This document shows, in pieces, positions 31,035 to 35,495 of a stretch of DNA of 64,000 nucleotides. The notes beneath the pieces are model-generated. The model did not search any database and was not told the origin of the DNA. It worked only from the letters and a program-made list of their open reading frames with translations. The position numbers and the translations under genes were made by a program. Within the stretch, counting starts at the first letter, position 1; each line of letters begins with the position of its first letter. The DNA comes from a phage. The stretch lies in the sequence record PV808484.1. One strand, 5' to 3'.

Positions 31035-31985
31035 TTAGTCAAGGTTTTTGGTAATACGTGTGCAACCGTCAGAAGTCAAACCGTCAACTTGAGTTTCCCA
31101 AGTACCATGAATATTTCGGAACAATGTTGTTACACCTTTTGGTTCATTAATAATGATTGCCATAACAAGTTTAGGATCGATAACAGACATAATCTTTTCC
31201 TCAATACCCTCTGTAATAACATTATTGCGCACAATATTAATTGCATCTTCTTGTACAGTAAGAACACTTACGTTCTTAAGAGTATATACCTGCTGTGTAG
31301 TGTAAATGATACGAACATAACTTACAGAACGAGTAGGCACAGGTTTACGCGGTCGGCGAAAACGTGGTTTTGGTGAAGATTCAGTTTTACTTTCATCTTT
31401 TGAATAATACTCCTCAAACAGTTTAGTAAATGTTTTTACATCAACTACAAACCGATCTTTCCGATATGGAGAATTCTTATGTGCACCATTAATACCACTG
31501 TTTTCATCGAAGAAAGTAATGTTTTCTTCAGTTGAATACATTAGATAATGATCTGCATTGTTCCAATGTGGTTGTGGACAACGAGAATTACAAACGGAAA
31601 GCAGATAATTAATATTTTCTTTCGTGGCCTCAGTATCCAGGAAACACGTATTATGCACAGTCAGTTGTACTTTTTCAGCCATATCCTTTTCTTTATCCTC
31701 ATTGGTAAGATATTCAGTACGAAGAATTTCCAGAAAATTTTCAGGTGTTACTTCCATAAATGTATATTCAGGATGAAGTTCCATATATTCAAATCCACAA
31801 CCATCTAATTGCTGTAGAAAGTTAGGGTAGAAGAACAAATCATTAACACTGTGAATCAGATCATTGATTTCTGCTTCAGTTGTGTAACCAAAACTTTTGT
31901 GAATTGCCTCGTTAAGAATATGCAGGATACCCATCTCTTCTGCTGCTTTTTTAACTTCCAGTTTATTAGCGTAAAATGCAATCAT
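31035..31985 (-). CDS. hypothetical protein
   Basis: 316-aa ORF. Confidence 0.5.
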   Translation of the reverse strand: MIAFYANKLEVKKAAEEMGILHILNEAIHKSFGYTTEAEINDLIHSVNDLFFYPNFLQQLDGCGFEYMELHPEYTFMEVTPENFLEILRTEYLTNEDKEKDMAEKVQLTVHNTCFLDTEATKENINYLLSVCNSRCPQPHWNNADHYLMYSTEENITFFDENSGINGAHKNSPYRKDRFVVDVKTFTKLFEEYYSKDESKTESSPKPRFRRPRKPVPTRSVSYVRIIYTTQQVYTLKNVSVLTVQEDAINIVRNNVITEGIEEKIMSVIDPKLVMAIIINEPKGVTTLFRNIHGTWETQVDGLTSDGCTRITKNLD

Positions 31986-32002: not shown

Positions 32003-32437
32003 TTAGTTTAAAATTTCTTTTGCAATGGTAGAAGCAAGTTTTCCATCATATTGATTCGGATACTCTGCTTTAAGGTGTTTCATCATATCTGGCATTTTCT
32101 TGCCTGTCAAGGCAAATTCTTCGGCAATAGCTCGAAGATCATCTTCAGATAGCATTTCTGGTAAATATTTCTCCAGAGTGGTGATATCACGCATAGCTCG
32201 CTCACATTTGCTAAGGGAAGCATTAACTTTCTTAAGCGAGTCTAGTTCCTCTTTAGCGTGTGCAATACCAATCTTAACAATGTTAATCATAATATCGTCT
32301 TCTGATTTGTTTAGATTTGCCTTTTGAGTACGAGCAAGGTCAAACTCACCAATAATATTAGTTAACAAAGCAAAAGCACCCTTATCGGTTGTACGTGCTA
32401 AGATACGATCTGCTTTCATTTGTGTCACAATAGACAT
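32003..32437 (-). CDS. GatB/YqeY-domain protein
   Basis: 144 aa; LEKYLPEMLSEDDLRAIAEE...DGKLASTIAKEIL aligns with YqeY signature. Confidence 0.7.
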   Translation of the reverse strand: MSIVTQMKADRILARTTDKGAFALLTNIIGEFDLARTQKANLNKSEDDIMINIVKIGIAHAKEELDSLKKVNASLSKCERAMRDITTLEKYLPEMLSEDDLRAIAEEFALTGKKMPDMMKHLKAEYPNQYDGKLASTIAKEILN

Positions 32438-32449
32438 TCTATTCTCCTC

Positions 32450-33022
32450 TTATTTGCTAATGCTTTGAATGTTATTTACAACACGGTTTATTGCCAGTGA
32501 AGCCCTAGGCTCTGCAATACCTGTTGCATAGATATAAGGATGACCTTTTGGAGACTCCCTCATACCGAATGAACCTAATTCTAAACCATATTCATCCTCT
32601 ACGTCAACCCCAATATTAGTGGGTACTAAATATGTTTTAACTCCATAATAAGTAGAGAAGAAACAGCGCATAGCGTTAGCATACTCTTCAATTGTAGCAT
32701 CAGGGTAGAACTCAATCAACTCCAATTTCAAGAAAATATTAAAATGGGTATCATCTAAACTTTCTTCTGTACGGTAACATGGCGTTAGTGCCATATACGG
32801 ATTACCTGCTGCAAATTCAAAACCATCCTTCTCCATTTGCAGGAAAGATTGTTCTGCACTAGCTACATAGTATTTACCGTTAGGATGCCCTAATGGGCGA
32901 TCCTCTTTATTTTCTGGTAGTGTGTACGCCAGTATATCAGCATCCACGAGATATGGAACTTCTAACATTTGTGCAAATCGACCATAGTAATCAATAGCTT
33001 GAGCTATTACTGCAACATTCAT
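32450..33022 (-). CDS. hypothetical protein (possible class-II aaRS-like ligase fold)
   Basis: 190 aa; ATGIAEPRASL resembles class-II motif 3; weak. Confidence 0.45.
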   Translation of the reverse strand: MNVAVIAQAIDYYGRFAQMLEVPYLVDADILAYTLPENKEDRPLGHPNGKYYVASAEQSFLQMEKDGFEFAAGNPYMALTPCYRTEESLDDTHFNIFLKLELIEFYPDATIEEYANAMRCFFSTYYGVKTYLVPTNIGVDVEDEYGLELGSFGMRESPKGHPYIYATGIAEPRASLAINRVVNNIQSISK

Positions 33023-33270
33023 GATCGACCTCCATTGCGGAATGCACGTTTAGTAATGTTTGACATAGTGATCAAATCTTGAAGCGTCATATCAGGAAAA
33101 TGCTGTTCAAGAACACCTTCAACAGCGCCTACAATATCTGATAACTCAATAAGTTGCATCAGCTTGCAGTCTTGATCAATAGCATCTTGAAGTTCATAAA
33201 GCTCTTCTTGAATCTTAGCAACAGAACCATATTCCTCTTTGCTAATCTCCTTCAAATGATACCCTGCCAC
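33019..33270 (-). CDS. hypothetical protein
   Basis: 83-aa ORF, acidic helical. Confidence 0.45.
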   Translation of the reverse strand: MAGYHLKEISKEEYGSVAKIQEELYELQDAIDQDCKLMQLIELSDIVGAVEGVLEQHFPDMTLQDLITMSNITKRAFRNGGRS

Positions 33271-33280
33271 TTTAACCCCC

Positions 33281-35017
33281 TTAGTTTACCAGTTTATTTA
33301 TGTCTGGTAAAAGATTTATTTCACCTAAGAAATCACCTTCACCTTCCTCTAGCCAACTCTCATATGCTTGTGCATGATTATAGTTACCATCAAAAGAATC
33401 TGCAACAAATTTTTCTACAGTTTTTCGAGATGTGCCAGCGCCAAATACACCAAGTTTAATACCATTGATCGGTAAAGTGGTGCTTGTGGGTACTTTCTCT
33501 GTTGCAACACGGTTGATATCTATAATCTCCTGTACGGTTGTATTCCATTGTAAGCATTTAACACAACGGGTGTGCGCTACATACAGTAGGTTTCGCTCTG
33601 CCTCTTCCAGTCCTACCCATTCACCAGTCTTTTTATCATAATTGGAAGGAAAATCATTAGCAACAATAACCTGATCCCACTCCAAACCTTTAGATTTGTG
33701 TGCTGTAGTCAATGTGACTTTTGCTGTAGGAGAATTTCTATGCGTTCTAAGTGTATGTGCTATAGTGTTTGCCTTACCAGAAACTACAATGTTTAACAAA
33801 CGTTTAGCATCTGGATCAGCCTCTGCACACTCAACAAATTCATCCCAGTCTGCATAAGGTAATACAGTTTCATGTTTTACTTTCTCAATATCTCCTCTCC
33901 GAAGAGCATTAACACTATCTACCATAGAGATAAAATCCCTGGTATCTACGTTAATAATAATTTCTTCCCCGTCTGCAATACGATCCATTGCCTCCATAAG
34001 CAAGGTTAAATTCTTGCGAAAGATGATAGTGTAAGGCTTTGTATAGTCTACAACATCTGATTTGTAGCTACCTACTACAGTATCAAAGCCTTTACCAACC
34101 AAAGGATGACGCAAAGGTTCTTTATCACTTAAAATCATATTCGCAATGTTTGCCACTTTGGGGCCAAAACGGAAGCAAGCAGTTAATGGAAGTTCTGCCC
34201 CATATGTAGAAGTTTCCTTCATCATATTTTGGCTTCCACGGAACTGGTAGATGCTCTGATATTCGTCTCCCACCACTACTACTTGTTTTGCAGATTTAGC
34301 ATTCCGCAGAATAGACAAGAATGCAGGGTTAACATCCTGGAATTCATCCCCAAAAATAATGTCATAACCAAGATCAGCACCTGATAATTCAAACAATTTT
34401 ACATAGGTGTCATGCGTCATCAAAGTATCTGTGTTAGGATCAATGCGCTCTCGCCACAATTGTTTTGCATACTTAACTACTTCTGTAATTAGTTTGTGTT
34501 CGTTAATACCTTTTCTTTTAATATCTGCAAGATGTACACCAGGAAAATGTTTACGGCTGATAAAAGGATCATCCGAAAATTCAAACTTACCTACGGTTTG
34601 CTTGATCATTAAACCAATCATAGCACGAGTTAAAAGTGTTTTCCCTCGTTTATCAATAAGATTATTAATCTTAAATTTCTTTGCTATCTCGCTACCTGTA
34701 CCTGCAACGTTAACATACTGTCCTTCTGGTCGTGACAGTTTTGCACGTAAACGATGATCCAGGAATTGATAGCAAATGGAATGCAATGTACGGCATTCTA
34801 CATTTGGTGGCATCTTACGCCGTGCTTCTTCTGCCATGCTTTTATTGAAAGCTAAGTAAAGAATGCGATCTTCTGTACTGTTAGCCAGCAAATAAAGTGT
34901 TGACGTTTTGCCTGATCCAGATTTAGCCTGGATAGTTAAAAAGCGATGATCTGGAAAAGCCTCCTTAATAGCTGTTTGCTCTTCTGTTGGAGTAAAACTC
35001 AACTCTTTCTTAGCCAT
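33281..35017 (-). CDS. UvrD/Rep-type superfamily-1 DNA helicase
   Basis: Walker A AKSGSGKT; C-terminal TAHKSKGLEWDQVIV; start moved to ATG 35017 (AGAGAGG upstream). Confidence 0.7.
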   Translation of the reverse strand: MAKKELSFTPTEEQTAIKEAFPDHRFLTIQAKSGSGKTSTLYLLANSTEDRILYLAFNKSMAEEARRKMPPNVECRTLHSICYQFLDHRLRAKLSRPEGQYVNVAGTGSEIAKKFKINNLIDKRGKTLLTRAMIGLMIKQTVGKFEFSDDPFISRKHFPGVHLADIKRKGINEHKLITEVVKYAKQLWRERIDPNTDTLMTHDTYVKLFELSGADLGYDIIFGDEFQDVNPAFLSILRNAKSAKQVVVVGDEYQSIYQFRGSQNMMKETSTYGAELPLTACFRFGPKVANIANMILSDKEPLRHPLVGKGFDTVVGSYKSDVVDYTKPYTIIFRKNLTLLMEAMDRIADGEEIIINVDTRDFISMVDSVNALRRGDIEKVKHETVLPYADWDEFVECAEADPDAKRLLNIVVSGKANTIAHTLRTHRNSPTAKVTLTTAHKSKGLEWDQVIVANDFPSNYDKKTGEWVGLEEAERNLLYVAHTRCVKCLQWNTTVQEIIDINRVATEKVPTSTTLPINGIKLGVFGAGTSRKTVEKFVADSFDGNYNHAQAYESWLEEGEGDFLGEINLLPDINKLVN

Positions 35018-35018
35018 T

Positions 35019-35495
35019 TCAACCTCTCTTAATTTGTTTAACAAGCATAGGAACAAAATCTCGTTTTAAAATTTGTTCAATAATGTGATCAGGTAGCTGT
35101 TGGAAATTATAATTAAAAGCTACTGTTTCACCTTTAGGTGTTTCTACCCGCACATATAACATGTTGCGAAGTTTATCCACTTGTGCTGTATATTCTAAAC
35201 CACGTAATTGATGCATTGCAAACATCAAATCATCAGTTTCAGTTTGGAATCTATCCCTTGTCTGCATCAAGGATAAGGCAAAAGGTAGATTTTCCCTAAG
35301 AGCCACCTTCTTAGGCACTAGTGAAGGGAAATACTCCCCAATAACTTCCTGTGTAAGCTGAATACACTCTTTTTCAAGCTGGTTTTGTTCCTTGAGTTCA
35401 CAAACACTTTTTTGTAAAGTGTTAACCTCTTTTTGCAAAGCTGCTAGTTGAGCACTTAACTTTCTTTTTTGATTACGACCAAAACGTTTAGACAT
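35019..35495 (-). CDS. hypothetical protein
   Basis: 158-aa ORF. Confidence 0.5.
   Translation of the reverse strand: MSKRFGRNQKRKLSAQLAALQKEVNTLQKSVCELKEQNQLEKECIQLTQEVIGEYFPSLVPKKVALRENLPFALSLMQTRDRFQTETDDLMFAMHQLRGLEYTAQVDKLRNMLYVRVETPKGETVAFNYNFQQLPDHIIEQILKRDFVPMLVKQIKRG

Follow-up and report, generated by a model that had tools for sequence, protein, structure and literature searches.

What reaction would a pair of small genes carry out that large phages of quite different kinds keep side by side, and is tRNA their target? The question arises from three consecutive genes at positions 32003-33270 of a 64,000-nucleotide stretch of the phage sequence record PV808484.1 (the window, by which that whole stretch is meant), which derives from a phi92-like (Stephanstirmvirinae, Justusliebigvirus-type) Escherichia coli myovirus. 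An earlier note on this DNA, which had the coordinates and the three genes right, read them as a tRNA-directed or amino-acid-ligation module composed of a YqeY-type domain protein, a possible class II aminoacyl-tRNA synthetase (aaRS)-like ligase and an acidic helical protein. Our analysis revealed that all three open reading frames (ORFs) lie on the minus strand and that two of them, an 83-amino-acid (aa) protein resembling HisE and MazG and a 190-aa class II core closest to seryl-tRNA synthetase (SerRS), form a tightly linked and sometimes fused pair nearly restricted to phages. We propose, with a probability of about one half, that this pair is a phage-specific two-subunit enzyme coupling seryl-type adenylate formation to nucleotide pyrophosphohydrolysis, and we lean toward a small molecule or nucleotide as its acceptor. 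The three genes are the following:

33019-33270, minus strand: 83-aa HisE/MazG-type pyrophosphohydrolase-like protein (phrog_6408); GTG start, eight bases past a GGGGG ribosome-binding site

32450-33022, minus strand: 190-aa minimal class II aaRS catalytic core with SerRS as its closest relative (phrog_4806); start ATG and preceding stop codon overlap as ATGA

32003-32437, minus strand: 144-aa stand-alone YqeY (GatB_YqeY) domain protein; GAGGAG ribosome-binding site, 12 bases past the 190-aa ORF

A linked and fused gene pair in large phages

The 83-aa and 190-aa genes are translationally coupled in the window phage through the ATGA overlap. Gene neighbourhoods were taken from 7 GenBank and 80 IMG/VR loci (87 together) and from 15 species-genome loci, with their six-frame ORFs searched by hidden Markov models; three added loci (Phapecoctavirus, Bacillus phage G and Acinetobacter phage Phab24; L088, L105 and L106) bring these 102 to 105. 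A homologue of the 83-aa protein adjoins the core in 85 of the 87 GenBank and IMG/VR loci and in 13 of the 15 species-genome loci, and the two are adjacent or fused in 101 of the 105; conserved synteny, on which the earlier note had staked its proposal, is thus present for this partner. Most pairs lie within 30 nucleotides (nt) of each other, and either gene order was found. Fused ORFs occur at several loci (L004, L068, L082-L084, L087, L095, L098 and L102) and in eight inspected representative proteins; gp131 of Microcystis phage Ma-LMM01 is such a fusion, and at least eight other loci have one. The core is still next door at the two weakest tblastn matches of the 83-aa protein, those in Bacillus phage G and Phab24. 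By tblastn, phage records with the 190-aa protein number 273 and those with the 83-aa protein 264, and the breakdown by host genus is nearly the same for both. All-against-all clustering of the neighbouring ORFs at the 87 loci gave no third conserved neighbour, no family being present in more than 9 loci, and a YqeY gene adjoins the pair in 3 of the 102 loci screened (L001, L008 and L009), all of the window's genus. Because linkage and fusion concern these two genes and YqeY adjoins them in the window's genus alone, we take the functional unit to be the HisE/MazG-like protein together with the mini class II core.

All three proteins of the window are conserved across hundreds of phage records, so none of the three is a chance ORF. 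When 1.84 billion representative proteins were searched with a profile of the core, 1597 clusters were recovered (1439 at E ≤ 1e-10), mostly of 175-200 aa, and a survey of one genome per species over 185,579 prokaryotic species yielded 15 loci, all on contigs of metagenome-assembled genomes (MAGs). Given these few MAG loci, the core family is near-exclusive to large virulent phages. The hosts comprise Enterobacteria, Acinetobacter, Caulobacter/Brevundimonas, Microcystis and Bacillus, and the pair was found in phi92-like, rV5-like, T4-like Acinetobacter, phiCbK-like, Microcystis and Bacillus G-type phages.

Genes of nucleotide metabolism accompany the pair in several of these phages: NrdD/NrdG and a helicase in the window, the frd-td interval in Morganella phage MP1 and the nrdC region in Acinetobacter phages. 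The pair of Bacillus phage G (gp286/gp287, in the gp277-gp287 interval of L105) lies just downstream of an NAD salvage and synthesis run of nicotinate phosphoribosyltransferase, nicotinate mononucleotide (NaMN) adenylyltransferase and NAD synthetase, where a KptA-like 2'-phosphotransferase is also encoded. tRNA genes lie within 1 kb of the pair in 7 of 75 lineages and on both sides of it in 4 of the 75, a proximity that we judge to be above chance; the 64-kb window has no tRNA gene. Several unrelated jumbo-phage lineages have the pair inside or beside large tRNA arrays of up to 18 tRNAs in 12 kb (L032, L035, L049, L078, L062 and L063, with the module at about 5.6-6.6 kb of each locus, and L044, L050, L042 and L073), and in CcrBL9-like Caulobacter phages a tRNA-Glu gene begins 144 nt past the core's stop codon.

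A minimal class II core with a SerRS-type active site

Single-sequence searches with the 190-aa protein found nothing significant in PDB or NCBIfam, and the best Pfam match had an E value of 0.028. An AlphaFold model computed from a 35-homologue alignment (predicted local distance difference test [pLDDT], 95.1) has the class II fold, an antiparallel beta-sheet flanked by helices, and the family profile matched SerRS first (E = 1e-4), followed by AspRS and PylRS. With single-sequence searches nearly blind, the fold was revealed by profiles and structure prediction alone. The weak call that the earlier note had made on 32450-33022 is borne out by this model, and the segment ATGIAEPRASL (residues 166-176) that it had singled out is a genuine class II motif 3. 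Motif 1 is present with the consensus G-Y-x4-V-P-Y-L-V (P23 in 256 of 270 relatives), and the remaining active-site elements are located as follows:

32843-32860, minus strand: S55-A-E57-Q-S-F60, equivalent to the TxE segment of SerRS (TAE in the A. aeolicus and E. coli enzymes)

32720-32785, minus strand: motif 2, T80-P-C-Y-R84-T-E86 … H93 … F97-L-K99-L-E101; aligns to TPCFRSE…HQFDKVE of SerRS

32570-32581, minus strand: E148-L-G-S151, counterpart of the SerRS E-I-S-S (presumed Mg/ATP site); manual alignment to REISSCSN of E. coli SerRS

32498-32530, minus strand: motif 3, Y165-A-T167-G-I-A-E-P-R173-A-S175; gap-free match to S-G-L-A-V-G-R of SerRS

Residue conservation was counted over 271 unique relatives (270 at some positions). 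The invariant set consists of S55, E57, R84, F97, K99 and E101 (271/271) and E148, G150, S151, T167 and R173 (270/270), and Q58 (267/271), P172 (269/270) and an acidic residue at position 86 (E or D in 252/271) are nearly so. These invariant positions include what we take, from T. thermophilus SerRS-adenylate structures, to be the arginines that bind ATP, the ligands of Mg, and a Glu and a Thr holding the hydroxyl group of serine; the role of E148…S151 as the Mg/ATP site is likewise assumed from T. thermophilus SerRS structures. With roles so assigned, the serine- and Mg/ATP-binding residues of SerRS (TxE; F-x-K-x-E; E-x-x-S; T/S six residues before the motif 3 Arg) are all kept.

The N-terminal coiled-coil tRNA arm is absent, as the 190-aa protein begins at motif 1: the model has just a short helix (residues 3-13) ahead of the core, and residues 1 to about 170 of E. 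coli SerRS have no counterpart. The motif 2 loop has a family median of 12 residues and a net charge of -3, compared with 18 residues and +1 in E. coli SerRS. The NCBIfam serS model TIGR00414 did not match the window protein and gave a fused relative (P0159) 17.8 bits against a cutoff of 301.65. With its fold and motifs 1 to 3, the 190-aa protein is a member of the class II aaRS catalytic-domain superfamily, and it descends from, or converges on, SerRS. A canonical SerRS identity was rejected on account of the missing arm and the serS score far below the cutoff, and a HisRS/HisZ identity, the PHROG label of phrog_4806, was rejected because the sequence is nearer to SerRS than to HisRS. PADLOC returned no matches, and when the model of a natural fusion was searched against BFVD, the matches were family members, aaRSs of giant viruses and "MazG-like" proteins of Acinetobacter, with nothing mechanistic among them.

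Some relatives carry extra domains. The core of CcrColossus (gp133; L005 7743-8597) has an N-terminal RNA polymerase alpha C-terminal domain (alpha-CTD; Pfam, 27.3 bits against 23.8), and variants of the pair's families with extra domains were also seen in P0102, P0096, P0151, L103 330-836 and L003 7357-7980. The types besides alpha-CTD are Cys-rich, zinc-ribbon-like C-terminal tails and a tandem duplication of the HisE/MazG-like domain. The HisE/MazG-like partner of Acinetobacter phages has a C-terminal extension of about 125 aa, of unknown kind.

A HisE/MazG-type partner

The 83-aa protein had been described by the earlier note as acidic and helical, which is accurate (isoelectric point [pI], 4.6); it is, however, not a featureless helical protein and, as judged from its sequence family, appears to be a recognisable all-alpha domain of HisE/MazG type in which the EExxE…ExxD metal motif is intact. 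The residues Y4, H5, I9, K19, E22, E23, E26, E42 and D45 do not vary among all 45 of the diverse homologues aligned, and the two parts of the putative metal site are located as follows:

33193-33207, minus strand: EExxE metal-binding motif E22-E23-L-Y-E26, invariant; aligns to KVAEEAAE of HisE

33136-33147, minus strand: ExxD motif E42-L-S-D45, with E42 and D45 invariant; aligns to EVAD of HisE

The Pfam model PRA-PH (PF01503) is matched by 34 of the 45 family members at E ≤ 0.1 (best, 2.9e-5), always in the same region, and the model MazG (PF03819) by 4 of the 45. Among solved structures, the family profile matched HisE best (2a7w; E = 0.022), with the MazG-like SSO3215 next (1vmg; E = 0.023), and both alignments cover the K-x-x-EExxE and E-x-x-D helices. 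In the model of a natural fusion (pLDDT, 95; predicted template modelling score [pTM], 0.81), the HisE/MazG-like domain consists of three helices that follow an ordered coil with the G-Y-H segment. A carrier-protein identity was rejected: the family has no invariant serine, and S44 is not a phosphopantetheine attachment serine, since it is replaced by alanine or cysteine in many homologues.

Proposed function of the pair

In the proposed two-subunit enzyme, the 190-aa subunit would use serine, or a very similar small amino acid, and ATP to form an enzyme-bound aminoacyl-adenylate with release of pyrophosphate, and the 83-aa subunit would cleave, by hydrolysis, the alpha-beta phosphoanhydride bond in a compound of nucleoside-triphosphate type. 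The two subunits would share one pathway or one complex, as their tight linkage and fusion suggest, and the activated amino acid would pass to a non-canonical acceptor, namely a nucleotide or other small molecule made or processed by the 83-aa subunit. Catalysis by the core, and not a HisZ-like binding role, is suggested because the adenylate-forming site is fully conserved and HisZ has no adenylation activity (PMC9437257). The invariant metal site similarly argues that the 83-aa partner is an enzyme acting on a phosphoanhydride and not a passive adaptor.

As for the acceptor, we slightly favour a small molecule or nucleotide, with a tRNA 3' end as a close second and ordinary tRNA-Ser charging as less likely. 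SerRS inserts its motif 2 loop into the acceptor stem (PMC9427863), and the loss of the arm together with the short, acidic loop of the phage core makes us lean toward a non-tRNA acceptor. The lean is strengthened by the nucleotide-metabolism settings and by the truncated class II paralogues AsnA, HisZ, PoxA and the aa:[carrier protein] ligases, which use non-tRNA partners (2022 review; PMC9437257). The global acidity of the protein was dropped as an argument against tRNA binding, since E. coli SerRS is itself acidic (pI 5.3). The amino-acid-ligation half of the earlier proposal is accordingly a fair description of a class II fold with an intact adenylate-forming site, whereas a unit centred on YqeY does not hold; action on tRNA is possible, with the missing arm, the short acidic loop and the lack of a tRNA gene in the window on one side and a minority of lineages inside tRNA arrays on the other.

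Several points weigh against the two-subunit enzyme as proposed. No published functional study of the pair was found in the literature searched, in which the genome description of phage RXM (PMC8953757) was the only paper found to name both genes. Serine is assigned as the presumed substrate by aligning the core to SerRS residues whose roles are taken from the T. thermophilus structures, and the aa:[carrier protein] ligases are SerRS-like yet activate glycine or alanine, so specificity can drift. On the side of the partner, the window's 83-aa protein scores 15.0 bits against the Pfam gathering threshold of 21.3, the PDB profile matches of its family are marginal (E of about 0.02), and three predicted helices are fewer than in a typical MazG unit. 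The tRNA context (the 7 of 75 lineages within 1 kb and the 4 flanked, with YqeY adjacent in the window's genus) and the alpha-CTD (helix-hairpin-helix) domain or zinc-ribbon-like tails on some relatives count in the same direction.

Comparison with known systems

Compared with bacterial-type SerRS, the phage core keeps the complete active site but has 190 aa against about 430, lacks the coiled-coil arm and the core insertions, has a motif 2 loop that is 6 residues shorter and acidic, and is paired with a HisE/MazG-like gene. The aa:[carrier protein] ligases (Bll0957; PDB 3mey) derive from zinc-dependent, methanogen-type SerRS, have about 290 aa and acylate the phosphopantetheine of carrier proteins. 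The neighbour of the phage core has instead a MazG/HisE metal motif and no invariant serine, and a ligase system of this kind was rejected because that neighbour is not a carrier protein. HisZ, with HisE, is the source of the phage labels "histidyl tRNA synthetase" and "phosphoribosyl-ATP pyrophosphatase"; HisZ has lost adenylation, whereas the phage core keeps the assigned catalytic residues, and neighbour clustering at the 87 loci gave no HisG-like gene linked to the pair.

Insect mitochondrial SerRS2alpha/SLIMP contains, as the phage pair is predicted to, an arm-less, catalytically intact, partner-dependent SerRS subunit (PMC10570016, PMC10817482). SLIMP is a SerRS paralogue that gives the tRNA arm, whereas the phage partner is an unrelated three-helix HisE/MazG-like domain. 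Phage MazG/HisE pyrophosphohydrolases, such as the cyanophage MazG (work cited in PMC8953757), share the EExxE…ExxD motif, the small helical domain and the location in nucleotide-metabolism regions. The 83-aa type differs from these in being shorter (about 80 aa, with three predicted helices), in adding an invariant N-terminal G-Y-H and a C-terminal T-x-x-x-F…R, and in almost never occurring without the class II core. A 2022 review of aaRS paralogues includes SLIMP and the aa:[carrier protein] ligases as SerRS-derived and nothing like the phage core family (PMC9437257). We rate the phage core as a new family of class II aaRS paralogues whose obligate partner is of a new type.

Alternative explanations

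The best placed of the alternatives, which we nevertheless consider unlikely, is a split minimal SerRS, in which the core would charge tRNA-Ser of the phage or its host, or the 3' end of any tRNA, and a partner would bring the tRNA; candidates for that partner are the 83-aa subunit, the host SerRS in a heterodimer or, in the window's genus, YqeY in trans. The parallels would be GlyQ/GlyS, PylSc/PylSn and insect SerRS2alpha/SLIMP, and an obligate adjacent or fused partner does resemble two-subunit aaRSs, of which GlyQS and PheST are examples. The core retains the full SerRS-type active site as well as the dimer-interface motif 1, and there is a documented case of a SerRS catalytic subunit that lacks the arm and works with a partner supplying it (PMC10570016, PMC10817482). 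The pair also lies in or abuts tRNA arrays in several independent lineages, including the CcrBL9-like Caulobacter phages; the sporadic alpha-CTD or Cys-rich-tail fusions resemble nucleic-acid-binding appendages; and YqeY-type domains are similar to the tails by which GatB and GlnRS bind tRNA (PMC13374519). However, the helical arm is absent and the motif 2 loop, given its role in SerRS (PMC9427863), is short and net negative. The five invariant metal-binding acidic residues of the partner would be unexplained if it were an RNA-binding adaptor only, about 90% of the lineages have no tRNA neighbourhood, YqeY is not conserved with the pair, and the hosts already own a SerRS. In addition, tRNA arrays may be frequent insertion sites for accessory genes.

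A regulated nucleotide-pool enzyme is improbable. Here the HisE/MazG-like subunit would be the catalytic partner, a pyrophosphohydrolase of nucleoside or deoxynucleoside triphosphates that sanitises or biases the pool, and the core would be a HisZ-like sensor of amino acid and ATP that switches it allosterically. The settings in several lineages (NrdD/NrdG, frd-td, the nrdC region and NAD salvage) would suit such an enzyme, but HisZ has no adenylation activity (PMC9437257) and the assigned catalytic residues of the core are 100% conserved over 271 sequences, which points to chemistry and not to binding alone; its nearest sequence relatives, moreover, are SerRS and not HisRS or HisZ.

We give still less credence to a counter-defence or signalling module, which would make a dinucleoside-polyphosphate or aminoacyl-nucleotide signal or bind and destroy amino-acid-nucleotide immune signals (e.g., His-ADPR, SAM-AMP), compounds similar to aminoacyl-adenylates. 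The pair is patchy, near-exclusive to phages, moves between unrelated large phages and often lies among small hypothetical genes; a class II site is built for an AMP-linked amino acid, pyrophosphate bonds are what a MazG/HisE site cleaves, and Ap4A synthesis by LysRS/LysU is documented (PMC10817482, PMC9437257). This is nonetheless pure analogy, with no PADLOC match, no literature link found and no known anti-defence gene associated among the neighbours at the 87 loci. Finally, the single three-part, tRNA-directed module of YqeY, ligase and acidic protein that the earlier note envisaged is very improbable, since its co-directional, tightly spaced genes with ribosome-binding sites and no intervening terminator, conserved together in 56 Justusliebigvirus-type records, are offset by a YqeY gene that adjoins the pair so rarely, is missing at that position in Phapecoctavirus and elsewhere has a differing host profile.

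The YqeY gene and the surrounding locus

The YqeY-type domain that the earlier note had recognised at 32003-32437 is genuine: the 144-aa protein scores 30.4 bits against the PF09424 gathering cutoff of 27 (E = 4.6e-7, the model covering residues 38-143), and it matches phrog_1460 (E = 2e-36) and, among solved structures, Bacillus subtilis YqeY (1ng6; E = 8e-5) and 8xjg (E = 0.008). YqeY, which E. coli lacks, is still poorly understood and is similar to the tails of GatB and GlnRS (PMC13374519). Because just the YqeY domain is present, the labels "amidotransferase" and "synthetase" are wrong for this protein. A role as a GatB amidotransferase subunit was rejected, the protein having only 144 aa and no GatB catalytic (cradle) domain, and the neighbours gave no matches to GatB_N, GatA or GatC.

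In the sister genus Phapecoctavirus, YqeY is absent at this position, and a 448-aa protein without similarity to YqeY comes directly after the core. By tblastn, YqeY was found in 204 phage records with a differing host profile (Vibrio, T5-like and jumbo phages). YqeY was therefore rejected as a conserved partner of the core; it is a lineage-specific insertion in the same transcription unit, that is, a co-transcribed but evolutionarily independent neighbour.

The 4.1-kb region round the locus has 99.4% DNA identity to Escherichia phage vB_Eco_PATM and 96-99% identity to 56 other Stephanstirmvirinae (phi92 / Justusliebigvirus-type) myoviruses, records being counted as relatives where at least 80% of the query region was covered. 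The annotated gene order in Escherichia phage JLBYU50 is UvrD-type helicase, putative phosphoribosyl-ATP pyrophosphatase, putative seryl-tRNA synthetase and GatB/YqeY domain protein, followed by a putative class III ribonucleotide reductase, NrdD and NrdG. Other records label the core histidyl tRNA synthetase or seryl-tRNA synthetase, the YqeY protein tRNA amidotransferase or Asp/Glu-tRNA synthetase, and the 83-aa protein MazG-type fold or MazG-like, PRA-PH or hypothetical.

A 316-aa ORF (31035-31985, minus strand) comes next after the YqeY gene. Its product has no Pfam, NCBIfam or PADLOC match, and nothing supports its PHROG and GenBank label "ribonucleotide reductase." Similarity to the 448-aa Phapecoctavirus protein at the same position is confined to about 35 residues at the start and about 100 at the end (34% and 43% identity), so the middle of the gene has been exchanged between the sister genera. 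No terminator-like hairpin was seen inside the block of the 83-aa, 190-aa and 144-aa genes, and a strong one lies at 30987-30965 (minus strand) between the 316-aa gene and nrdD, with a 9-bp stem, 5 G-C pairs and a T-rich tail; it probably marks the end of a transcription unit running from the helicase to the 316-aa gene. A promoter scan was at chance level (30 sites against 29.3 expected).

The UvrD/Rep-type helicase (33281-35056, minus strand) is intact in the window phage and is interrupted by an intein in the close relatives JohannJBalmer, PHB05, PD114 and phiWec187, as seen from two-piece matches and records that read "intein-containing helicase precursor." Cumulative GC skew over positions 1-64000 declines steadily as far as about 40-42 kb and increases beyond it, which fits a switch from minus- to plus-strand transcription near 40-42 kb. 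Three GenBank records, MG065645 (A145), MG065689 (A110a) and MG065650 (B15), are named "Campylobacter phage" with Campylobacter jejuni as host; at the protein level they are 76-98% identical to the E. coli Stephanstirmvirinae genes considered here, and the host assignment looks doubtful.

Implications

Hundreds of phage genomes label these genes inconsistently, no synthetase or amidotransferase name agrees with what the proteins contain, and the obligate, sometimes fused pair was not found captured in existing annotation. A class II core of 176-200 residues with a complete SerRS active site is a natural experiment on the minimal size of a functional catalytic domain. As a more tentative extension of the two-subunit enzyme, which we regard as speculative, this natural "urzyme-sized" core might make a seryl-type adenylate and pass its amino acid to a nucleotide on which the HisE/MazG-like subunit acts, or work jointly with that subunit on such a nucleotide. 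The product would be a new metabolite, either an aminoacyl-nucleotide or a dinucleoside polyphosphate, that serves counter-defence or the takeover of the host. If so, it would be, to our knowledge, the smallest natural, autonomously folding class II aaRS catalytic domain. The module is well defined, widespread and uncharacterised, its biological role being one that we infer, and the pair consists of two small soluble proteins whose enzymology is directly testable. Its presence in diverse large phages suggests that it probably performs a general reaction of the infection stage.

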